A stretch of 8,529 nucleotides of DNA from an uncultured Erysipelotrichaceae bacterium. GTDB lineage: Bacteria > Bacillota_I > Bacilli_A > Erysipelotrichales > Erysipelotrichaceae. The position numbers and the translations under genes are program-made. Under the pieces are notes generated by a model that was not told the DNA's origin, made no database searches, and saw nothing but the letters and a program-made list of their open reading frames with translations. The first letter of the stretch is position 1. Every line of letters begins with the position of its first letter. Of this stretch, positions 1 through 8,514 are shown piece by piece. Location: assembly GCA_964457525.1 (NCBI GenBank), contig CAYWGS010000062.1, forward strand, positions 1 to 8,529, read 5' to 3'.

Positions 1-1218
1 TGTTCTATGTTTTGTTAGTAATGGTACAAACGATGTGCCATTTTGTGGTTTATCGACATTGAAGTAATCACACACGGAAGCCCCAATGTCAGACAATGAT
101 TTTCTTAATCCAATTTCTACCCCTTGAACATTTCCATACTTGATGAGTAGAGGAACATTTTCACGGGTATGACGGTTATGTCCGATGTTCGGATCATTTC
201 CATGGTCTGCCATTACGACGAAGATATCATCGGGTCCTAAGAGTTCAAGAATATCGCCAATCTTCTTATCGGATATTTCGAGTAATTCTTTGTACCATTT
301 AGAGTTTTGACTATGACCGGCTAAGTCTGTTTCTTGTACGTTTGTACAAATGAAACCTTCTTGCATATCTTTGATTTCTTGAATGGTTAAATCAAGAACA
401 TCACTGGTATTCACACAGGAAACGAGTTTCCCTAAATCATTTGCGACAATATCCGCTACTTTTCCGAATAGGGATACATTGACTCCAGCTTTCGTTAGGA
501 TGGTTGGGGCTTGAACTTTTTCATTCACTCCATACCCTAGATGACGACATTGATAGCCTTCATTGTAGGACTTTGATTTAACCGCATGAATACCGATGAA
601 TCGTCCTTCACGAGTTTCTTCAGCGTTTAGTATATCTTGAATCGTTGTGTTTGTACCACCAAATGGTATAACACGATTCACAGTTACGACTTCTCTTACT
701 TGTCGTCCAATCTCTAATTCTTTCTCAAATGACATGAAATCAAGTGCAGCAGTAACATTGTATGCCATACCTAAGTCGGCATCGATGTTATCACCAACGG
801 TGCAATAATCATCTACGAGTAAGTATCTTAAATCACCGTTGGATCGAATTTCTACTTTATGGCCTAGTTTAGTTAAATGTTCATACACAACATCTACTTT
901 TTCTTGGAAGGGTTGGAATAAAGGTTTTAATGGGTTTGTGCCCATGATTTCTTGATGACCCATAAAGGTATCTGCACCATAGTGCATGAGTTCACTCTTA
1001 CCAAAGTTTGCGGTTGGTGATTTCTTCATGTTTAAGGATTCTTTACCATACGCATTCATTAAACCTAACTTCTCTAAATTAGGTAATTTCAAATCTGGAA
1101 AATCATGTAAGATACTACCTAACGTGTTACTGACTTCATCCCCTGGTCGTACAACACTCGCATCTGCGGTTGCGCCTATTCCAAATCCATCTAATACTAC
1201 TACAATAAATCGTTTCAT
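1..1218 (-). CDS. yhfW: YhfW-like metallo-phosphomutase of the phosphopentomutase (DeoB) / alkaline-phosphatase superfamily. It is truncated at the 3' end by the window edge: 406 codons are visible and there is no stop.
   Basis: This gene is absent from the supplied track. I translated the minus strand by hand from the ATG at 1218..1216, and it stays open through base 1: MKRFIVVVLDGFGIGATADASVVRPGDEV...HYGADTFMGHQEIMGTNPLKP...NVQETDLAGHSQNSKWY...FVVMADHGNDPNIGHNRHTRENVPLLIKYG...SFVPLLTKHRT. The DeoB-type landmarks are all present: the N-terminal metal Asp (VLDGFG, D10), a candidate phospho-acceptor Thr in GADT (T84), DxxGH, ADHGNDP and HTRE. The start overlaps the yhfX stop in an ATGA arrangement (1215..1218). 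E. coli YhfW is about the same length, so only a few codons should be missing. Confidence 0.85.
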   Translation of the reverse strand, partial: MKRFIVVVLDGFGIGATADASVVRPGDEVSNTLGSILHDFPDLKLPNLEKLGLMNAYGKESLNMKKSPTANFGKSELMHYGADTFMGHQEIMGTNPLKPLFQPFQEKVDVVYEHLTKLGHKVEIRSNGDLRYLLVDDYCTVGDNIDADLGMAYNVTAALDFMSFEKELEIGRQVREVVTVNRVIPFGGTNTTIQDILNAEETREGRFIGIHAVKSKSYNEGYQCRHLGYGVNEKVQAPTILTKAGVNVSLFGKVADIVANDLGKLVSCVNTSDVLDLTIQEIKDMQEGFICTNVQETDLAGHSQNSKWYKELLEISDKKIGDILELLGPDDIFVVMADHGNDPNIGHNRHTRENVPLLIKYGNVQGVEIGLRKSLSDIGASVCDYFNVDKPQNGTSFVPLLTKHRT

Positions 1219-2369
1219 AATTCAGCTCCTAAACTATTAAAGAGACCCAGTATTTCTGGTTTTCCACTTTGAATTCCCTTAACAATACATACTGTACTCC
1301 GTGTCACAAAGATTTGGAATCGAAATGCCATGAGGACAGTATCATTAATTTTCAAGTTATCACTTAATCCAAAGTGATAATCGATACTATCGAGATCAGG
1401 GGGTAAAACCTTCGTCATTTGTGCATGATTTAAATCAGTCCCAACCAATGCATTTTCCACATGAGATCGACGATAATGTCCTCCACCATAACAGAATGAT
1501 TTCTGATTAAGCGTGTGAGAAACTTCACTCACATAGACAACCGCAGGAATTTCTACTCCATCTTTAATCGCATGTAGAGGTGTTGTACCACTTAAACCAT
1601 GTCCGGGTTCTCCACTGTTTACTGGATATTTTGCCATCTCTTCGATGGTTTCAACACAGGTTGTGGAAGGTGCATTTAGATTTTCAATACTTATGCCAAG
1701 TTTTTCCACAATCGTTTTGGCTCTTAGAATGGTATTCAAATTCTCTGTGGGTTCATTCTTTTGAGTTGTTTCGTTGTATAAGAAACACGGGAAAGAGGTT
1801 AACCCTTTAATATCAATGTGTTCAAGTTTCTTGAGATCATGGACCACATGTTCTAACTCATCAATATGAAATCCAGCGTGTTGACCGCTATAGATACGAT
1901 CTTGATCACTGATAATCCGTAACATGACTTTTTGTTTACGATTTGTATTCACTAAACATGCGTTGATATCTTGTGCTTTTTCAATGGAATAGAGGGTAAC
2001 ATATTCACATCCGTAATCCACTAATTGTTTTAATAAAGCTTTAGGTGGTTGAACTAAATGTCCTACATTTGAGATCGGCACATTGTGTTCCATATAAATC
2101 TTCGCTTCATTGAAATCCACCGCAACCGCTCCAGAATAACCAAGTTTGATAAGTTCTTTTGCGATGATTGGGTTTCTGCCCAACTGCTTTAACATGAAAT
2201 ACATCTTGAGATCATGTTTCTGTGCAGATTCAATAATATGTTTCGCATTCGCTAATAAAGCATCTAAATCAATCACATAGGTATCAGGTAGAATGAGTCC
2301 TTTTTGATGTAAATCGAAACATGTTTGTACTAATGCAGGATTTCTGCGTATTGTCTTTTCTAGGAACAT
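1215..2369 (-). CDS. yhfX: YhfX-like PLP-dependent enzyme, fold type III (alanine racemase N-terminal / ODC-like barrel). Substrate unknown.
   Basis: 384-aa ORF. The N-terminal region DLKMYFMLKQLGRNP resembles the fold-type-III PLP-lysine motif (Y/F-A-x-K-x-N), which makes K61 the candidate PLP lysine. The length and the adjacency to the yhfW-like gene match the E. coli yhfX-yhfW pair. The SD AAGGGTG lies upstream of the ATG. The start overlaps the yhfS stop by 10 nt. Confidence 0.82.
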   Translation of the reverse strand: MFLEKTIRRNPALVQTCFDLHQKGLILPDTYVIDLDALLANAKHIIESAQKHDLKMYFMLKQLGRNPIIAKELIKLGYSGAVAVDFNEAKIYMEHNVPISNVGHLVQPPKALLKQLVDYGCEYVTLYSIEKAQDINACLVNTNRKQKVMLRIISDQDRIYSGQHAGFHIDELEHVVHDLKKLEHIDIKGLTSFPCFLYNETTQKNEPTENLNTILRAKTIVEKLGISIENLNAPSTTCVETIEEMAKYPVNSGEPGHGLSGTTPLHAIKDGVEIPAVVYVSEVSHTLNQKSFCYGGGHYRRSHVENALVGTDLNHAQMTKVLPPDLDSIDYHFGLSDNLKINDTVLMAFRFQIFVTRSTVCIVKGIQSGKPEILGLFNSLGAEL

Positions 2370-3466
2370 TCTTTCACCCTTTTAATACTTTCTACTAATA
2401 TACGAATAACGGTATCCGAACCTGAACGCATCGGATTAATACGAATCATACGATGTCTTAGACTTGGATCACTGTTAATAAATGTCTGACTTACACGATA
2501 GAACAATGGAACAATCTCATACTTCGATTCAGCCCCAACAGGATTCGGTGCTGCACCAAGTTTTTGTGCTTCGATCAGTACTTCTTGTGCAATATCTTCA
2601 TGGAATTCTACCAATAATACTTTAGATTGCGCATTGGCTAAAAAGACAGATTTAACCCCTTCAATGTTCATCGCTTGTATACGTTGTACGAGTTTCTCAT
2701 TTTCTTCTGCTTGAACCGCAAAAGAAACTGGGGCATAGACTAATCCACGTAAGACTTCCATGGCTTGGAAACCTTGGATCTTACCCCCACCGGAGTAATT
2801 CATTTTATCCACATATTCAATCACTTCTTTTTTACCGACTAAGATACCTACACCTTCAGGCCCGAGTAGTTTGAACGAAGAGAATGCGGACACATCTGCA
2901 CCGAGTTCTACTCCAATCTTACTGACCTTCATAACAGCGTAGTTATCATCGGTAATAATTGGTATATTTTGGACTGATTTAATGCGATCAATCACTTCTT
3001 TCATATCGTAATGATCATCCATTTTTTGACGGGTATATTGGATAAGTGCCGCATCAAATGTATGATTTTTGAGTACATTTAATAAATCATTTGAATCATT
3101 AAAATCTGCTTCAATACAGTTAATATTTAAACTCTCTAAACTTACCTTTGTCGTTGGATAGATGGGTGCCTTATGAATTAATAGAGTAGAGTTTGGTTTG
3201 AGTAGTGCTTGTAGACCCCAACGAATCGCACCTGTTCCTGCACCAGTTACTAAAAGTGCCTTTTCGACATTAAAGTAAGCTGCTAGAACTTTTTCTACTT
3301 TTTCGGTTTGTGTTGGTTTGTTTATCGAACCTGTAACCCCTAAATCCCCTAGATTTAAGAACTCAGATCCTGGAAACACCTTACAAATCTCATCCACAAG
3401 TCTGAATTGTTTTTCTTTTGCCTCTTCGATACTGATGGATTGTAATGGATATGTAAGCATAGTCAA
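2360..3466 (-). CDS. yhfS: YhfS-like fold-type-I PLP enzyme with a SelA/DgaE-like active-site segment.
   Basis: 368-aa ORF. The segment ADVSAFSSFKLLGPEGVGILVGKKEVI closely resembles the SelA-family PLP-lysine segment (FSGDKLLGGPQAGIIVGKK, as I recall it). That makes K199 (codon 2870..2872, AAA) the candidate Schiff-base lysine. The glycine-rich VTGAGTGAI and the ITDDNYAV Asp motif fit fold type I. A strong SD GAGGAGG lies 6 nt upstream of the ATG at 3466. Confidence 0.82.
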   Translation of the reverse strand: MTMLTYPLQSISIEEAKEKQFRLVDEICKVFPGSEFLNLGDLGVTGSINKPTQTEKVEKVLAAYFNVEKALLVTGAGTGAIRWGLQALLKPNSTLLIHKAPIYPTTKVSLESLNINCIEADFNDSNDLLNVLKNHTFDAALIQYTRQKMDDHYDMKEVIDRIKSVQNIPIITDDNYAVMKVSKIGVELGADVSAFSSFKLLGPEGVGILVGKKEVIEYVDKMNYSGGGKIQGFQAMEVLRGLVYAPVSFAVQAEENEKLVQRIQAMNIEGVKSVFLANAQSKVLLVEFHEDIAQEVLIEAQKLGAAPNPVGAESKYEIVPLFYRVSQTFINSDPSLRHRMIRINPMRSGSDTVIRILVESIKRVKECS

Positions 3467-3472
3467 CCTCCT

Positions 3473-4462
3473 CTATTGGTTATATTTTGGTGTGAAATAG
3501 AGATCTAAATCTCTAAAATAACGTTCAACTAATTCATCTTTCTCTGATACTAATTCTTTCGCAACACTTAAGAGTTTCGCAATCTTCTCAGGTTTAGACT
3601 CTGAGATGAGTAAATACGCTTGAGCCAATTCTTTCTTAGGGATACAGATTGCGGTCGCATTGGCCATATTCACCACTCGACAATAACCCTTTTTAGCTTC
3701 TTTCTGAATTTCTTTGGTTGTTTCATCGAAATGACCAAACACGGTATCTCCAAATCCAAAGAGATCAATCGGTCCTTCATTTGTAATCATCATATCGCAT
3801 TGTGGAAGAGTTTGACGTAAGAACAGTATCAGTCCATCTCTTTCGCCTAGTGCGTCTATCATTTCAATGGCTTGTGTTTCAAATGGATAAATATTGTTAT
3901 CCGAATGAGAGACAAATATCTTAGATGAATCTATACTCTTTGGAAGCGTTAACGTATCTTCAATGATTTCAGTTAATAATTCATAGGTATAGGTCATATA
4001 CCCAATCGATGGTTTAAATGGAATCCCATCCGTCGATACTTTCTTAAATTGATTCATGTACTCTGAATCGATTAAGGGAGAAACAAAACCAAACAAGTTA
4101 AGTGACATCGCAGGCGCTAGAACAGAGCCTCCACCATCAACACCAATTCCAATATCATTGATGCCTAGAAATACATTAATGGCAGTTCCACTACTTGAAC
4201 CTGTCATGTATCGACCTGTGATTGGATTGATGAGTTGAAGATCAATCGCTCTACCACCAAAAGAAGATTTATCTAAGGTATGGTGTTGATACTTATGGGT
4301 TTGTTCGAGGGATTGAATAAACTGTTGATTGACTTGTTTAACATTCTTCACACCCAATAACTTGATGGAGTCTTCCATCTCTTTAACATCCAATACGATT
4401 GAATCGACAGACTTATAAGGATTAATTTGGGCGACCGATGTCATCTTCATTAAACGTTTCAT
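3473..4462 (-). CDS. Compact divergent amidase-signature (AS) family protein, a putative amidohydrolase.
   Basis: 329-aa ORF. The core TGSSSGTAINVFLGINDIGIGVDGGGSVLAPAMSLNLFGFVSP aligns by eye to the AS consensus GGSSGGSAAAVAAG...[24 protein letters not shown]. Candidate cis-Ser is S90 and candidate nucleophile is S113. It is much shorter than typical AS enzymes. The SD GGAG lies inside the php 3' end, and only 2 nt separate the php stop from this ATG. Confidence 0.72.
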   Translation of the reverse strand: MKRLMKMTSVAQINPYKSVDSIVLDVKEMEDSIKLLGVKNVKQVNQQFIQSLEQTHKYQHHTLDKSSFGGRAIDLQLINPITGRYMTGSSSGTAINVFLGINDIGIGVDGGGSVLAPAMSLNLFGFVSPLIDSEYMNQFKKVSTDGIPFKPSIGYMTYTYELLTEIIEDTLTLPKSIDSSKIFVSHSDNNIYPFETQAIEMIDALGERDGLILFLRQTLPQCDMMITNEGPIDLFGFGDTVFGHFDETTKEIQKEAKKGYCRVVNMANATAICIPKKELAQAYLLISESKPEKIAKLLSVAKELVSEKDELVERYFRDLDLYFTPKYNQ

Positions 4463-4464
4463 AT

Positions 4465-5331
4465 TTACTCCGCAAAAATGATTTCTGGATTCGTAATCAA
4501 CATTTGTTCAATCGATGATTCTTTCATACCTGCTTTACGTAATTCTGGAATGAAGTGGGTAAATAAGTAATTGTATCCAATCCCACCTTTATAGTTTAGG
4601 TGTGATTTACGAGTTAAATCTTCGGATAATACAACACCATGAATTCGATTCGTCTTCTCAAGTTCGAGTAAGAACTCTATACGTTTTTCATCTGGGAAGT
4701 AATCATTTTTACCAATCGTATCAAATCCAACAAAGAAACCAAGATCAATGACTTGTTTAATCACATCTAAGTCTTTGGATAAATCCATGTGACCAATAAC
4801 AATTCGCTTTGGATCAAGTTTCTTAGAAACAAAATAATGAGCTTGTTCAAGACCTAAGGTACCAATGGTTGTATGAGTGTAGATCGGTTTCTTCGTAGCT
4901 TGATGAGCAATGATCGCAGCTTCAAATACCGCTAACTCTTCTTTCTTCCATTCGTTTAAACTGGTTCCAATTTCACCGATAATGCCAATACTCGAATCGT
5001 TTCGAATATCGTTAATCATTTCATCTGCGATTTCTTGAACGGATTTATTCGCTAAATCACTCGGTAAGAAAGGTACTTTATAGAATCCAGTAGCTTGAAT
5101 GATATTAATCCCTGACTCCTGTGCAATCTTTTCCACATAGTGCCGGTTTAATCCCATTCCACGATTGGTTACATCGACGATATTACGTACACCATTACGA
5201 TAGAGTTCCTTGAATTCTACAAGTGTTTCATCGTAGCAGTCGAGTCGACAGTCAAGATCGTTTTTGACGCCTGAGAGGTCGATGGTAATGTGTTCATGCA
5301 TTAAGGTATAGCCTTTAATGAGTTTTGTCAT
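4465..5331 (-). CDS. php: Phosphotriesterase-homology protein (Php). Amidohydrolase superfamily, COG1735, binuclear-metal hydrolase.
   Basis: 288-aa ORF that is collinear by eye with E. coli Php. The N-terminus GYTLMHEHITIDLSG carries the HxH metal ligands (H12, H14). IIGEIGTS supplies a bridging Glu (E120) in place of the carbamylated Lys of true phosphotriesterases. YTHTT (H153), IGHMD (H181) and LSEDLTR (D238) are each offset by about 5 residues from the E. coli ligand numbering as I recall it. Confidence 0.92.
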   Translation of the reverse strand: MTKLIKGYTLMHEHITIDLSGVKNDLDCRLDCYDETLVEFKELYRNGVRNIVDVTNRGMGLNRHYVEKIAQESGINIIQATGFYKVPFLPSDLANKSVQEIADEMINDIRNDSSIGIIGEIGTSLNEWKKEELAVFEAAIIAHQATKKPIYTHTTIGTLGLEQAHYFVSKKLDPKRIVIGHMDLSKDLDVIKQVIDLGFFVGFDTIGKNDYFPDEKRIEFLLELEKTNRIHGVVLSEDLTRKSHLNYKGGIGYNYLFTHFIPELRKAGMKESSIEQMLITNPEIIFAE

Positions 5332-5356
5332 GGATTGAATCCCTTTCTTAAAGTAA

Positions 5357-5385
5357 AGAGTGAAGTGAATTGTTCACTTCACTCT
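5357..5385 (-). terminator. Intercistronic stem-loop between yhfT and php. It could be a weak or partial intrinsic terminator, or an mRNA processing or stability element.
   Basis: A perfect 13-bp inverted repeat: AGAGTGAAGTGAA (5357..5369), loop TTG, then TTCACTTCACTCT (5373..5385). On the transcribed (minus) strand the stem is followed by TTACTTTAA, which is only a poor U-tract. The stem is AT-rich (5 G/C pairs out of 13). Confidence 0.35.
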
Positions 5386-5415
5386 ATTATTCATGTATTC
5401 AATAATTGTTGTGGC

Positions 5416-6735
5416 TTAACCAACTGGGATTAAAGCAACAAGTTTAACGATGATTAATAAGTTTAGAAGGATACCAAATGCGATGGTAGCAACTGGGCCG
5501 ATTGCTAGTTCAACGATAGGCTTCTTAGACATACGGTTAAGTAATAGAACAGCGATAACGAATAGAGCACCGATGCCACTAAGGCCAACTGCTGCAGACA
5601 TTGTTTCAGCCGCAACAACAGCTCCGACTAATAATGCGACTTCAAGAACTTTATTCATAGAAGTACGAATGTGTTCACCCATGTCTTTAACGCCTGGGAA
5701 TCTATCCATACCTTTAGCAAATACGTTGATAAGTAATAATTCAACAACCATAACAGCTGCGCCAGCGATGCCTGCAAATAATGGATTGCCATGTAGTGCT
5801 AGACCAACTGCGAAGACAAAGGTAACCCCTGCAGGTCCATAAACACCTGTAACGATTGCGGTTGTGAAGACAAGTGGAATAAACCCAATTGCTCGTGTGA
5901 ATGCGGCTAAAGCAGCTTCAGAATAAGAACCAGCGGCTAATAATGCGAGAGATGCTGGGTCACCTGCAACGATTGAAAGAGATGTTGCGGCCGCAAGTAA
6001 TCCACCCATAACCGCTAATAGAGGCCAATTCTTACGAATACGAGCTACTTTTTCAGAGAAAACACTTACTAATGTTGTATTGGAATCTGTGCTTTCAACC
6101 TTTTGAGTTGCCGCATAGAATAACATTGTGATTGTTCCAGCTAACATTGCCATACCTTCACCATTGAGTGAGATCTTGAAATCTCCAACCATGAAGATAC
6201 CGAATTTTTTAACTAAGAAATAAACTAGAACCGTAATAACACCAGAGATAATCCCCTTTTTCATGCCATGTTGGTAACCAACAGCGACAGCTGGGAAAAT
6301 AGCGAATACGACTGTAACATATTTGGATACACCACCTAATGCACTTAAGAAGTTATAAGGTAATGCCGCGAATAATTGAACGATAAATTCTAGTCCAACA
6401 AGGATACCAATACCGTAGACTGCACCGATAACTCCTGCAGCGATTGTGCCTTTGAATGTATCAGGGCACCAAGTACCGATAATATCGGTTGTTAGTAATA
6501 AACTGTGGATTAAGATGATGGTAGCAGCGATGGATGTTGGAATACCAAATCCGACCACTAAACCAAAACTGATAGCGAAACTCATTGCCGCTAATTCTTT
6601 ACGGCCAATCTTTCCTTCTAAGTATTGAGGAACGATTGGTCTGAAACCGTCGTTAAATACAGCGATTCCTTTGTTTGCCAAAACGGATGCTAGTGCGCCA
6701 ATTGCCGCAATAACAATGTAGTTAAGAAATTCCAT
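5416..6735 (-). CDS. yhfT: YhfT-like polytopic inner-membrane protein, a putative permease.
   Basis: 439-aa ORF that is hydrophobic almost throughout, with many Gly/Ala/Val/Ile-rich helices such as IVIAAIGALASVLA, FAISFGLVVGFGIP and GIGALFVIAVLLL. Its size and its position directly after the DUF2620 gene match E. coli yhfU-yhfT. A strong SD AAGGAGA lies upstream, and there is a 3-nt gap from the yhfU stop. Confidence 0.85.
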   Translation of the reverse strand: MEFLNYIVIAAIGALASVLANKGIAVFNDGFRPIVPQYLEGKIGRKELAAMSFAISFGLVVGFGIPTSIAATIILIHSLLLTTDIIGTWCPDTFKGTIAAGVIGAVYGIGILVGLEFIVQLFAALPYNFLSALGGVSKYVTVVFAIFPAVAVGYQHGMKKGIISGVITVLVYFLVKKFGIFMVGDFKISLNGEGMAMLAGTITMLFYAATQKVESTDSNTTLVSVFSEKVARIRKNWPLLAVMGGLLAAATSLSIVAGDPASLALLAAGSYSEAALAAFTRAIGFIPLVFTTAIVTGVYGPAGVTFVFAVGLALHGNPLFAGIAGAAVMVVELLLINVFAKGMDRFPGVKDMGEHIRTSMNKVLEVALLVGAVVAAETMSAAVGLSGIGALFVIAVLLLNRMSKKPIVELAIGPVATIAFGILLNLLIIVKLVALIPVG

Positions 6736-6738
6736 GCA

Positions 6739-7119
6739 TTAATTCTCCTTTTCTCTTTTGCTTAAAATAGCATTTAGTAATATTGGTAATACTTTCTCAG
6801 TGTGTTGATCCACAAAGCCGAATGCTTTTTTGCCCTCATTCACTGCTTTGATAATCTCTTCATCTGCGAAAATTTTGCCTGGCATCGATATTGTTTTACA
6901 GAGGTCCATGCCGAGTAGTGCCATAGCCATGGCAAGTGCACCTCCACCGCCTGTATTACAAGCGCCAACATAATAATCGAAATTCCCTTTCTTTAGAGCA
7001 TTCACTGCTTCAAGATCGTTCTTAATTTCAAGATACACATTGGATTCGCCCAAGTATCGTTGAATGAAATTGTAGATCTCTTGCTTGTTAACCTGCCCAC
7101 CAATCACAATTCTTAACAT
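6739..7119 (-). CDS. yhfU: YhfU-like small soluble protein (DUF2620 family).
   Basis: 126-aa ORF: MLRIVIGGQVNKQEI...FDYYVGACNTGGGGALAMAMALLG.... It has a predicted N-terminal beta-strand and a Cys/Gly-rich loop (C54, codon 6958..6960 TGT). The size and the pairing with yhfT match E. coli. A strong SD GGGAGGA lies upstream. Confidence 0.78.
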   Translation of the reverse strand: MLRIVIGGQVNKQEIYNFIQRYLGESNVYLEIKNDLEAVNALKKGNFDYYVGACNTGGGGALAMAMALLGMDLCKTISMPGKIFADEEIIKAVNEGKKAFGFVDQHTEKVLPILLNAILSKREKEN

Positions 7120-7162
7120 CGTATTCCTCCCTTCATCGTTTTTCTATCTATTGTTAGGATGA

Positions 7163-7503
7163 TTAATCCTGACTTAAATTACATAGATGCATAATAAGGA
7201 ATTTGCGTTCACTCTCCATATATGGAACCGGTGAATGATTGGAAATCATTTCAAACAACTCTACCGCTTGATTGAACTTTGGATCCATTTCAATTTGACT
7301 CCAAATACTATCATCAAATTCTAACTCTTCATTTTGATCAACCGTACGTTGAGTTGCCATCGCTAGTGCGTGGTGAACATTTCCATCTTACCTTCTTCAA
7401 ACGAATATCCACTCAAAAGATCGATGACTTTTATGACATAGTCCGCAACCGCTTTTGAAATAATATTGGCTTCAAGTAAGATATTAATTCTTTCTATTAA
7501 CAT
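7163..7503 (-). pseudogene. yhfY: YhfY-like stand-alone PRD-domain protein, split by a 1-nt frameshift.
   Basis: The ATG at 7503..7501 (SD GAGGAAAAAATG) opens a 46-codon ORF: MLIERINILLEANIISKAVADYVIKVIDLLSGYSFEEGKMEMFTTH, ending at TAG 7365..7363. This ORF is too short to be in the track. The track ORF 7163..7360 (MATQRTVDQ...FLIMHLCNLSQD) continues in the -1 frame, which is open from 7387. Joining the two gives ...MFTTH-LAMATQR..., a PRD-like T-H-L-A-x-A-x-x-R histidine motif, plus a second conserved-His motif, IMHLC. The joined length of about 113 aa is close to E. coli YhfY (about 120 aa). Confidence 0.7.
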
Positions 7504-7520
7504 TTTTTCCTCAATCTAAT

Positions 7521-7555
7521 CAATATACAATATTTTGTATATTGTATTTTACAAT
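7521..7555. promoter_or_regulatory. Overlapping dyad-symmetric candidate operators at and just downstream of the predicted transcription start.
   Basis: Dyad 1 is CAATATACAA (7521..7530), spacer TATT, then TTGTATATTG (7535..7544), with perfect 10-bp arms. Dyad 2 is ATTGTA (7541..7546), spacer TTT, then TACAAT (7550..7555), and it shares bases with the right arm of dyad 1. The TACAAT/ATTGTA core recurs three times. Both dyads lie between the -10 box and the yhfY SD. Confidence 0.45.
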
Positions 7556-7558
7556 TTC

Positions 7559-7586
7559 ATTATACCCCAGAACGGTTGTTTGTCAA
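7559..7586 (-). promoter_or_regulatory. Sigma-70/SigA-type operon promoter with consensus -35 and -10 hexamers.
   Basis: The minus strand reads TTGACA (7586..7581), a 16-nt spacer, then TATAAT (7564..7559). Both hexamers match the consensus perfectly. The predicted TSS is near 7552, which gives a leader of about 50 nt before the yhfY ATG. The -35 box begins only 5 nt after the yhfZ stop codon. Confidence 0.6.
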
Positions 7587-7590
7587 CACT

Positions 7591-8514
7591 TTAGTAACTT
7601 GGGGTAATTTTACCGTCTAATACGAGTTTTTGTATATTAACCACAGAATCCACATCAATAATCTCATTGAGTAGAATCGCGAGTTCTGGTTTGTCTTTAC
7701 TCACGACGATCACCGCTTCAGTATCTTCAGAATTTTTTTGAGCTACTGTAATGTAATTGATCTTTACAAACTTATCTGTGATTTCATCTTTATTCCAAAC
7801 AGCCGCGTCAATATCTCCAGAGATAACTTTATCTAAAATCTGAGAGTACTCCGTTTGTACGAAGGTCACATCGATTCCCTTACATACTTTCTCCGTCAAA
7901 TCCTTTTGGTCAATGGAGTCCGCATCAATCCCAACTTTCATTCCAGGTAAGATCTCATGAACATCTTTATTATGAAAAATAACGATGTGTTCACTTAAAT
8001 AAGAGTTAATCCCAAACGACTTAACAACCATAATCGAATCATTCTTCATTAGAAATTGATTCGCCGCATATTTTGAAACAACCGCATAATCATAACGATC
8101 CGACAGTAACATGCCAATCCGATTCACTGCCCCTCTCATATAGGCCATATACGCTGGTACATTGTATTGATTTTCCATCGCCACAATTAAACCTGACGCA
8201 AATCCTTCATATTTCTTGGAGTATGGAAGTGGCATAACCCCTACAATACTTGTAATCCCTGAGAACTCTAAAAGGATACGTGTATTCTTCTCAATCAAAA
8301 AAGTTCCAAGATGTCCTCTTGATTCAAGTCGTATTGCCTTATTGTTCTGTAGAAACTTCAAAGAGTTTTGAACGGTCCCTCTCGCTAAATCCATCGTTTC
8401 ACATAATTCTGTAATCGTTGGTATATTAGATCCTACCGAGTGTTTTAAAAACTCCTTGGCTAGTTTCATTGTCGCAAATCCATTTTTACTCAGTAACATT
8501 TGTTGATAATTCAT
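7591..8514 (-). CDS. yhfZ: YhfZ-like transcriptional regulator: an N-terminal winged-HTH plus a C-terminal periplasmic-binding-protein-like ligand domain.
   Basis: 307-aa ORF. The N-terminus IPTITELCETMDLARGTVQNSLKFLQNNKAIRLESRGHLGTFL looks like a GntR-style wHTH. The segment VGVMPLPYSKKYEGFASGL, the DAAVWN motif and the C-terminal ...PSY match what I recall of E. coli YhfZ (301 aa). The SD AAGGTG lies upstream of the ATG at 8514. The gene's own promoter is outside the window. Confidence 0.8.
   Translation of the reverse strand: MNYQQMLLSKNGFATMKLAKEFLKHSVGSNIPTITELCETMDLARGTVQNSLKFLQNNKAIRLESRGHLGTFLIEKNTRILLEFSGITSIVGVMPLPYSKKYEGFASGLIVAMENQYNVPAYMAYMRGAVNRIGMLLSDRYDYAVVSKYAANQFLMKNDSIMVVKSFGINSYLSEHIVIFHNKDVHEILPGMKVGIDADSIDQKDLTEKVCKGIDVTFVQTEYSQILDKVISGDIDAAVWNKDEITDKFVKINYITVAQKNSEDTEAVIVVSKDKPELAILLNEIIDVDSVVNIQKLVLDGKITPSY

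Follow-up and report, generated by a model that had tools for sequence, protein, structure and literature searches.

The sequence analysed in this study (referred to as the window) is a stretch of 8,529 nucleotides of contig CAYWGS010000062.1 (assembly GCA_964457525.1). By sequence comparison, it was identified as the Firmicute form of the yhfZ-yhfY-yhfU-yhfT-php-yhfS-yhfX-yhfW gene cluster, from an uncultured Erysipelothrix-like bacterium of the gut or of sewage. Nine co-directional genes had been proposed in a first-pass annotation made from the nucleotide sequence alone, and all nine were found, on the minus strand and in the order Z-Y-U-T-P-A-S-X-W, where Y is the PRD gene, P is php, A is an amidase gene and the other letters stand for the yhf genes (Table 1). 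Profile searches with Pfam and NCBIfam confirmed the families that had been named, namely YhfZ, PRD, DUF2620, YhfT, Php/PTE, the amidase signature, YhfS, YhfX and the YhfW-type mutase. The G+C content of the window was 34-44%. Open reading frames of 60-130 amino acids (aa) on the plus strand were nested in the minus-strand genes and were taken as spurious.

Table 1. Genes and other features of the window
Feature	Position	Strand	Size	Basis
yhfZ, GntR-type regulator (HTH_41 and YhfZ_C sensor domain)	7591..8514	-	307 aa	NF041241, Pfam
Predicted sigma-70/sigma-A type promoter, for the PRD-to-yhfW transcript	7559..7586	-		Consensus match
Perfect 10-bp inverted repeat, candidate YhfZ operator	7521..7544	.		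Motif search
yhfY-like PRD-only gene, split (7503..7363 and 7360..7163)	7163..7503	-		Pfam PRD after repair
yhfU, DUF2620 protein	6739..7119	-	126 aa	Pfam, E 5e-41
yhfT, polytopic membrane protein, presumed permease	5416..6735	-	439 aa	Pfam, E 2e-153
Intercistronic hairpin, yhfT/php	5357..5385	-		Folding
php, phosphotriesterase-homology binuclear-metal amidohydrolase	4465..5331	-	288 aa	Pfam PTE, E 2e-69
Short amidase-signature protein	3473..4462	-	329 aa	Pfam Amidase, residues 83-126
yhfS-like fold-type I pyridoxal phosphate (PLP) enzyme	2360..3466	-	368 aa	Pfam YhfS-like_C, E 7e-43
yhfX-like fold-type III PLP enzyme	1215..2369	-	384 aa	YhfX-like_C, E 2e-36
yhfW-like phosphopentomutase-family mutase	1..1218	-	406 codons	PRK12383

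Twelve related contigs (L001 and L088-L098), which were 97.4-99.8% identical to the window, were available for comparison. The near-identical contigs derive from sewage, wastewater and other metagenomes, and contig L007, from an uncultured Erysipelothrix metagenome-assembled genome (MAG), was 100% identical to the window across its 1.8 kb. The operon had been described as complete, which is not strictly accurate for what is an almost complete cluster: the PRD gene is frameshifted, and yhfW, the last gene, is truncated by the window, which lacks the last 4 codons and the stop of a gene that has 410 codons in L001. Tight junctions had been claimed as well. Five of the eight were 12 nt or shorter (U-T 3, P-A 2, A-S 6, S-X -10 and X-W -4 nt), with yhfX overlapping both yhfS (10 nt) and yhfW (4 nt, ATGA), but the remaining three were bigger (Z-PRD 87, PRD-U 43 and T-P 84 nt). 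The start of yhfS is ambiguous, as TTG at 3466 would give the 368-aa product and ATG at 3460 one of 366 aa, the latter being the start called on other contigs.

In Escherichia coli K-12, the counterpart of the cluster is b3383-b3376. All eight of its families are orthologous to those of the window (25-57% identity), and its genes also lie on one strand with the regulator first. The gene order differs, being Z-Y-X-W-P-U-T-S in E. coli K-12, and the E. coli cluster has no amidase, whereas that of the window lies between php and yhfS. The surroundings differ too: the E. coli K-12 cluster adjoins frlABCDR, and the window's adjoins unrelated methyltransferase and Fic genes. The regulator was 34% identical to E. 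coli YhfZ, matched Pfam HTH_41 and YhfZ_C, and scored above the equivalog cut-off of NF041241 YhfZ_full (373 bits, cut-off 260); its C-terminal domain matched PDB 2ozz, 'hypothetical protein YhfZ' (E 1e-31). The YhfS-like protein (57% identity to E. coli YhfS) matched PDB 4j8l, 'uncharacterized protein YhfS' (E 3e-124), and in Pfam also Aminotran_5 and Cys_Met_Meta_PP. The YhfX-like protein (42% identity to E. coli YhfX) combined Pfam Ala_racemase_N with YhfX-like_C and matched PDB 4kbx, 'uncharacterized protein YhfX' (E 6e-101). The YhfW-like protein (49% identity to E. coli YhfW) scored 570 bits with PRK12383 (cut-off 254) and failed the deoB model TIGR01696 (150 bits, cut-off 341), which makes it of the YhfW type and not DeoB.

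The Php protein, 46.5% identical to E. coli Php, scored 234.8 bits with Pfam PTE (cut-off 22.4), and its closest PDB entries were 1bf6 and 4lef, both of E. coli Php (E 4e-80). The six metal ligands (H12, H14, E125, H158, H186 and D243) were all kept in a pairwise alignment. The protein fell below the NCBIfam equivalog cut-off of PRK09875 (314 against 486 bits), and it is an ortholog by context that is too diverged for the equivalog rule. Php has the amidohydrolase family and the binuclear metal site in common with phospho-sugar lactonases (Listeria Lmo2620, 3pnz), and a phosphorylated lactone was supposed for Php because of this kinship. The distance to the lactonases is large, with an E-value of 8e-23 for 3pnz against 4e-80 for 1bf6, and 76 bits for NF045706 'phospho-furanose lactonase' (cut-off 630). 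Substrate specificities of phosphotriesterase-family phospho-sugar lactonases have reportedly been studied in the Raushel laboratory. According to the title of entry 4lef, Php was reportedly crystallised with phosphate in its active site.

Although crystal structures have been solved for the sensor domain of YhfZ and for Php, YhfS and YhfX, the php/yhf cluster of E. coli is still among those without an explanation. Within the sources searched, the statement of the first-pass annotation that the E. coli genes keep their y-names with no assigned substrate holds: in E. coli RefSeq (September 2026), yhfS, yhfT, yhfU, php, yhfW, yhfX, yhfY and yhfZ are listed as putative or uncharacterised, and PDB entries 4kbx, 4j8l and 2ozz are named uncharacterized or hypothetical. 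A full-text literature search found neither a published substrate assignment nor a functional study of the yhf/php cluster; one hit of the search just names its genes among accessory genes in Lactobacillus rhamnosus.

The amidase had been noted as an extra enzyme, and it is indeed a real, conserved member of the Firmicute version of the cluster. The protein scored 26.9 bits with Pfam PF01425 (gathering cut-off 27.0) over 44 residues (83-126). Its signature GSSSGTA...DGGGSVLAPA aligned with GGSSGG...GGS(I/V)RxPA of solved amidases, GatA among them, which shows that neither catalytic serine is missing; the core GSSSG...DGGGS(V/I)xxPA, with both serines, is common to GatA, malonamidase E2 and fatty acid amide hydrolase. 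Residues K39 (in GVKN), S89-S91 and S113 were invariant in a 14-member alignment (A1), and K39 falls outside the alignments to solved amidases. The protein is also shorter than ordinary amidases (329 aa against 410-640 aa), with which about 44 residues align. A profile of the family recovered 269 representatives among 1.84 billion cluster representatives and did not reach the bulk of ordinary amidases, and the full-length members were all 300-390 aa. Because of this narrow recovery and uniform length, the family is taken as a small, compact offshoot of the amidase-signature superfamily, found always in yhf clusters.

Relatives of the amidase were detected by a genome scan in 208 species genomes, mainly of Erysipelotrichaceae and Lachnospiraceae (Enterocloster, Hungatella), and also of Enterococcus, Vagococcus and Carnobacteriaceae. 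For the neighbourhood analysis, 80 genome loci were retrieved via the amidase, and it sat with yhf genes in every one of them. Where the contig offered enough flank, the full set of yhfZ, PRD, yhfU, yhfT, php, yhfS, yhfX and yhfW was present. At least six gene arrangements were seen among Firmicutes, in some of which the amidase gene was divergent or came first. That the linkage has outlasted so much rearrangement speaks strongly for the amidase as a part of the pathway. The flanks were searched for aldolase, kinase and dehydrogenase genes and no further enzyme family recurred in them, so the gene set appears self-contained.

The promoter of yhfZ falls outside the window, in which 15 nt alone precede the yhfZ ATG. 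The promoter that the first-pass annotation had placed at 7559..7586 was recovered as a perfect 12/12 match to TTGACA-16-TATAAT, the sole perfect match in the window, beginning 5 nt past the yhfZ stop codon. The inverted repeat CAATATACAA-AATA-TTGTATATTG, with the core TATACA-N6-TGTATA, follows the -10 box of this predicted promoter and precedes the ribosome-binding site from which the PRD gene would be translated. A single match to this palindrome was found in the window, where 0.14 would be expected. The core TRTACA-N6-TGTAYA occurred 38 times in 1.44 Mb of related loci, and about 32 of the 38 motifs sat 30-160 nt upstream of the first operon gene, often in two copies (loci L008-L086). The palindrome is probably the operator of YhfZ, and it is treated here as a candidate. 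In the Jeotgalibaca locus L014, the motif (at 9719 and 9846) lies between yhfU and the amidase gene, which are transcribed divergently, and in L082 it lies (at 9927) ahead of the amidase gene, which is the first gene there. Since the motif also precedes the amidase gene in these two loci, the amidase would share the YhfZ regulon. In E. coli K-12 (L087, 14010-14027), a perfect palindrome, TATTCA-N6-TGAATA, with the same spacing as the Firmicute operator, was seen between yhfY and yhfX; it is well placed but not above chance (1.14 expected at ≤2 mismatches).

The PRD gene of the window reads CACTAGCG, against CACTTAGCG in the 12 related contigs. This is a 1-nt deletion (TT to T) at about 7365/7366 (window positions 7363-7366), which converts His-Leu-Ala-Met-Ala to His-stop and splits the gene into fragments of 46 aa (ending in TAG) and 65 aa. 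In the related contigs the gene is intact at 113 aa (12 of 12), and the repaired 113-aa product scored 27.7 bits with Pfam PRD (cut-off 23). The 65-aa fragment was sought among the called genes of other assemblies and none was recorded. The deletion is either a real strain-specific mutation or a one-base assembly error. If it were real, the whole cluster might be a decaying, non-functional relic in this strain, of which the split PRD gene would be the first sign. The other eight reading frames are, however, unbroken and 97-100% identical to those of the related contigs, in all of which the PRD gene is whole, and no other recorded contig has the same fragment. Because the deletion only shortens TT to T, a single-base miscall in a low-coverage metagenome assembly explains it equally well, and decay of the cluster is considered very unlikely. 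The PRD protein was present in nearly all variants of the cluster. It consists of a single PRD; an RNA-binding (CAT) domain was not found in the 113-aa protein, nor any further domain, and an Rfam scan of the window gave no known RNA element at E ≤1, so no RAT target.

The gap between yhfT and php holds a hairpin with a 13-bp perfect stem, a 3-nt loop and a weak T-rich tail. The spacer folded with a z of -4.49, and 0 of 200 shuffles were as stable. The median T-P gap across loci was 69 nt, against medians of -10 to +8 nt at the enzyme junctions. At least 17 other loci have a stable hairpin at the same position, downstream of yhfT or yhfU, and its sequences in Carnobacteriaceae and Lachnospiraceae are unrelated, the structure being kept and not the sequence. 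Loci L008-L015, L043, L051, L069, L073, L077, L080 and L085 have a hairpin at this junction. Among four related copies (a small sample), four compensatory pairs were counted from a trimmed four-sequence alignment, with 93% pairing against at most 52% in slid controls. Automatic alignment of the T-P spacers of seven loci did not bring the hairpins into register, and no consensus structure emerged from it. The hairpin separates the PRD, YhfU and YhfT genes from the five enzyme genes, and the interval between hairpin and php is too short for a promoter. For that reason the hairpin was read as a partial terminator or transcript-stabilising element and not as a full stop. The hairpin qualifies the simple co-transcription assumed in the first-pass annotation without overturning it.

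Neither YhfU nor YhfT had solved relatives in the PDB by sequence. The YhfU protein contains the invariant motif GAC54-N-T56-GGGG (alignment A2), and its AlphaFold2 model (pLDDT 93.9) is of the RpiB fold: RpiB structures were the top 19 PDB matches (E from 2e-4, TM 0.52-0.70, probability 0.99-1.0), RpiB/LacAB gave the best structural match (best TM 0.60-0.70), and a Cys-x-Thr-Gly loop follows the third strand in both. This loop alone, out of the RpiB catalytic set, aligned with YhfU. The protein is shorter than RpiB/LacAB (126 against about 150 aa), the other catalytic positions are not kept, and its gene lies beside that of a membrane protein. The yhfU and yhfT genes were adjacent in every arrangement of the related loci, and this suggests that the two proteins act jointly. 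YhfU may act as an isomerase, may bind or relay phosphate as a partner of the membrane protein, or may do both.

The model of YhfT (pLDDT 73.7) was nearly all helical, and its mean column identity was 78% (alignment A3). For a membrane protein, YhfT shows unusual conservation, with about 70% or more identity among the best 120 cluster representatives and long invariant motifs, such as FNDGxRxIxPQ and PGVKDMGEHIRTSMN.

The 19 leading matches to RpiB would also fit a soluble RpiB/LacAB-type aldose-ketose isomerase, with YhfT as a secondary carrier importing an organophosphate, so that the phosphate arrives with the substrate. The phosphate reported in the active site of Php agrees with such a route, as does an hhalign comparison of YhfU with E. 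coli RpiB, statistically weak, which aligned C54-N-T56-G-G-G with C66-G-T68-G-V-G at a probability of 0.6%. At the sequence level the likeness goes little further: Pfam LacAB_rpiB did not match YhfU at E ≤10, and Asp9/His10 of RpiB correspond to Gly-Gln in YhfU. A strict adjacency to yhfT would moreover be unusual for the gene of a free metabolic isomerase, and YhfT is unlike any known organophosphate carrier; this arrangement was judged rather improbable.

The PRD protein, the lack of a kinase and the Cys/Gly-rich DUF2620 motif had suggested that YhfU would resemble EIIB and YhfT would resemble EIIC; this pair found no support in the fold searches. In the form in which this alternative was weighed, YhfT, YhfU and the PRD protein would constitute a non-canonical phosphotransferase-type uptake, in which Cys54 of YhfU accepts a phosphoryl group from HPr or from a borrowed EIIA, the substrate is translocated by YhfT and phosphorylated on entry, and the PRD protein senses the state of phosphorylation. 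Uptake of this kind would explain the lack of a kinase in the cluster and its conserved flanks even though relatives of Php and YhfW use phosphorylated sugars. It would also suit the presence of the PRD protein in nearly all variants, the constant yhfU/yhfT adjacency despite gene shuffling, and the invariant Cys of YhfU, after which comes a Gly-rich loop where a strand ends. The fold of YhfU and that of EIIB are of one general three-layer alpha/beta type, and IIB-cellobiose (1iib) was among the matches of the model, at rank 41. The ranking itself nevertheless favoured RpiB (E 2e-4 and TM 0.6-0.7, against E 0.03 and TM 0.42 for 1iib). The Cys of YhfU comes after strand 3, as in RpiB, whereas in EIIB of the lactose/cellobiose type it comes after strand 1. 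An EIIC resemblance of YhfT was sought by fold and by sequence and was not found, and EIIA is absent from the cluster. A phosphotransferase-type uptake is therefore considered unlikely.

Some likeness was also found to clusters of the EF_0829-EF_0837 type and to the Salmonella D-glucosaminate (dga) pathway. In Enterococcus and Aeromonas the former clusters comprise a PRD protein, a Gly-rich SFCGS protein, DUF4311/4312 membrane proteins, a PLP enzyme of the MJ0158 type and an amidohydrolase. The overall make-up is alike in the window: a PRD protein, a small Gly-rich protein, one or more membrane proteins, an amidohydrolase and a PLP enzyme. YhfU matched Gly_rich_SFCGS and TIGR03577 (EF_0830) weakly, and YhfS matched TIGR03576 and the DgaE family weakly, all below the cut-offs. 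A KDPG-type aldolase is absent from the cluster of the window. The dga pathway uses a standard mannose-type phosphotransferase system, and apart from dga these systems are not known to have been characterised.

Taken as a whole, the cluster is rather probably a repressor-controlled, substrate-inducible operon for the uptake and breakdown of an amide-containing compound of the amino-sugar or amino-sugar-acid type. The enzymatic steps were proposed from family membership, and the substrate class suggested in the first-pass annotation (nitrogen-containing, phosphorylated, sugar-acid or lactone/lactam-like) likewise derives from the names of the families. In the proposed scheme, YhfZ would repress through TATACA-N6-TGTATA until released by the substrate or an intermediate, and the PRD-only protein would relay the state of the sugar phosphotransferase system. 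The compound would be imported by YhfT, together with its constant neighbour YhfU, and the hairpin would set differing levels of the upstream and the enzyme genes from one transcript. The amidase would then cleave an amide bond, a step that Proteobacteria would lack or perform elsewhere, and Php would open a lactone-type or similar ester ring. Movement of phosphate on a sugar-like moiety is assigned to YhfW, and YhfU may perform an aldose-ketose isomerisation of a sugar phosphate by means of its Cys-x-Thr loop. Of the two PLP enzymes, YhfX would invert or activate an alpha-amino centre and YhfS would take off the amino group. The substrate would be a compound of guts and decaying matter.

Several points weigh against this reading. 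The main gap is phosphate: neither a kinase nor a phosphorylase was found in the cluster, and no kinase in the conserved flanks, which leaves unexplained where the phosphate that is assumed for Php and YhfW would come from. The YhfT model had no significant fold match in the PDB (best E 0.04, TM <0.25), and with no solved transporter fold matched, it is the polytopic membrane nature of YhfT that carries the transport role. The fixed adjacency of yhfU and yhfT is more in keeping with a role of YhfU as transport partner than with that of a free isomerase. Regarding the amidase, the Pfam score is marginal over 44 residues, and K39 would be the catalytic Lys on the sole basis of its invariance. 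No significant TATACA-N6-TGTATA operator was found at the yhf locus of E. coli K-12, and binding of YhfZ to the palindrome is deduced from sequence. The weak T-rich tail in the window leaves both an attenuator and a stabiliser open as roles of the hairpin.

A bolder proposal is that YhfT, the RpiB-fold YhfU and the PRD-only YhfY constitute an uptake system of a kind so far unrecognised, in which a membrane protein without a recognised fold would act with a small cytoplasmic Cys-loop protein that relays a phosphoryl group or isomerises the substrate on entry, and a free-standing PRD protein would exert control, with the SFCGS/DUF4311 clusters as a sister branch. This is put forward as a speculation with little probability attached to it.

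The orphan cluster was already known, its Firmicute variant is widespread, and the window is an ordinary example of that variant. Four features of this variant were not described in the searched literature, namely the short amidase that is linked to it, the candidate operator, the hairpin within the operon and the fold of DUF2620, which is RpiB-like. The variant makes the function of php/yhf more testable without answering it. The always-linked and apparently co-regulated amidase argues for an amide bond in the natural compound or in a Firmicute precursor of it, and the RpiB-like fold of YhfU suggests either a part in sugar-phosphate chemistry or a protein that binds phosphate and partners the membrane protein. 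The conserved candidate operator offers a simple reporter or binding assay for inducer screens. Gut Erysipelotrichaceae, Lachnospiraceae and enterococci commonly carry the cluster, which makes it probable that the substrate is a compound regularly present in the gut or in decaying matter.

The surroundings of the cluster were seen in a 36-kb contig of the same species (L088, 1-3942), in which genes for a galactitol-type EIIC, a SIS-domain protein, a PASTA-domain protein, a Fic/HTH protein and a methyltransferase lie 5' of yhfZ. Just 58 nt separate the methyltransferase gene from yhfZ in this contig. None of these upstream neighbours recurred beside the cluster in other genomes.

Locus L017 (3459-15640) and about 30 similar loci (L018-L021, L026-L036 and others) carry a second version of the cluster, more distant from that of the window. 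Its gene order is Z, a small zinc-ribbon membrane protein, PRD, T, U, P, X, A, S, W, and its YhfT and Php are only about 30% identical to those of the window. No Pfam match was found for its Cys-x-x-Cys membrane protein (112-164 aa). In nine of the second-version loci, yhfW is followed by another Php-like gene and by a YhfS-like gene of greater length (447 aa). Some loci of the cluster (L041, L042, L057, L080, L081 and L086) come from MAGs labelled Tannerellaceae, Acutalibacteraceae, Oscillospiraceae or Coriobacteriaceae. The Tannerellaceae label is probably a binning error, and the remaining labels, if correct, widen the range of the cluster beyond Erysipelotrichales, Lachnospirales and Lactobacillales.

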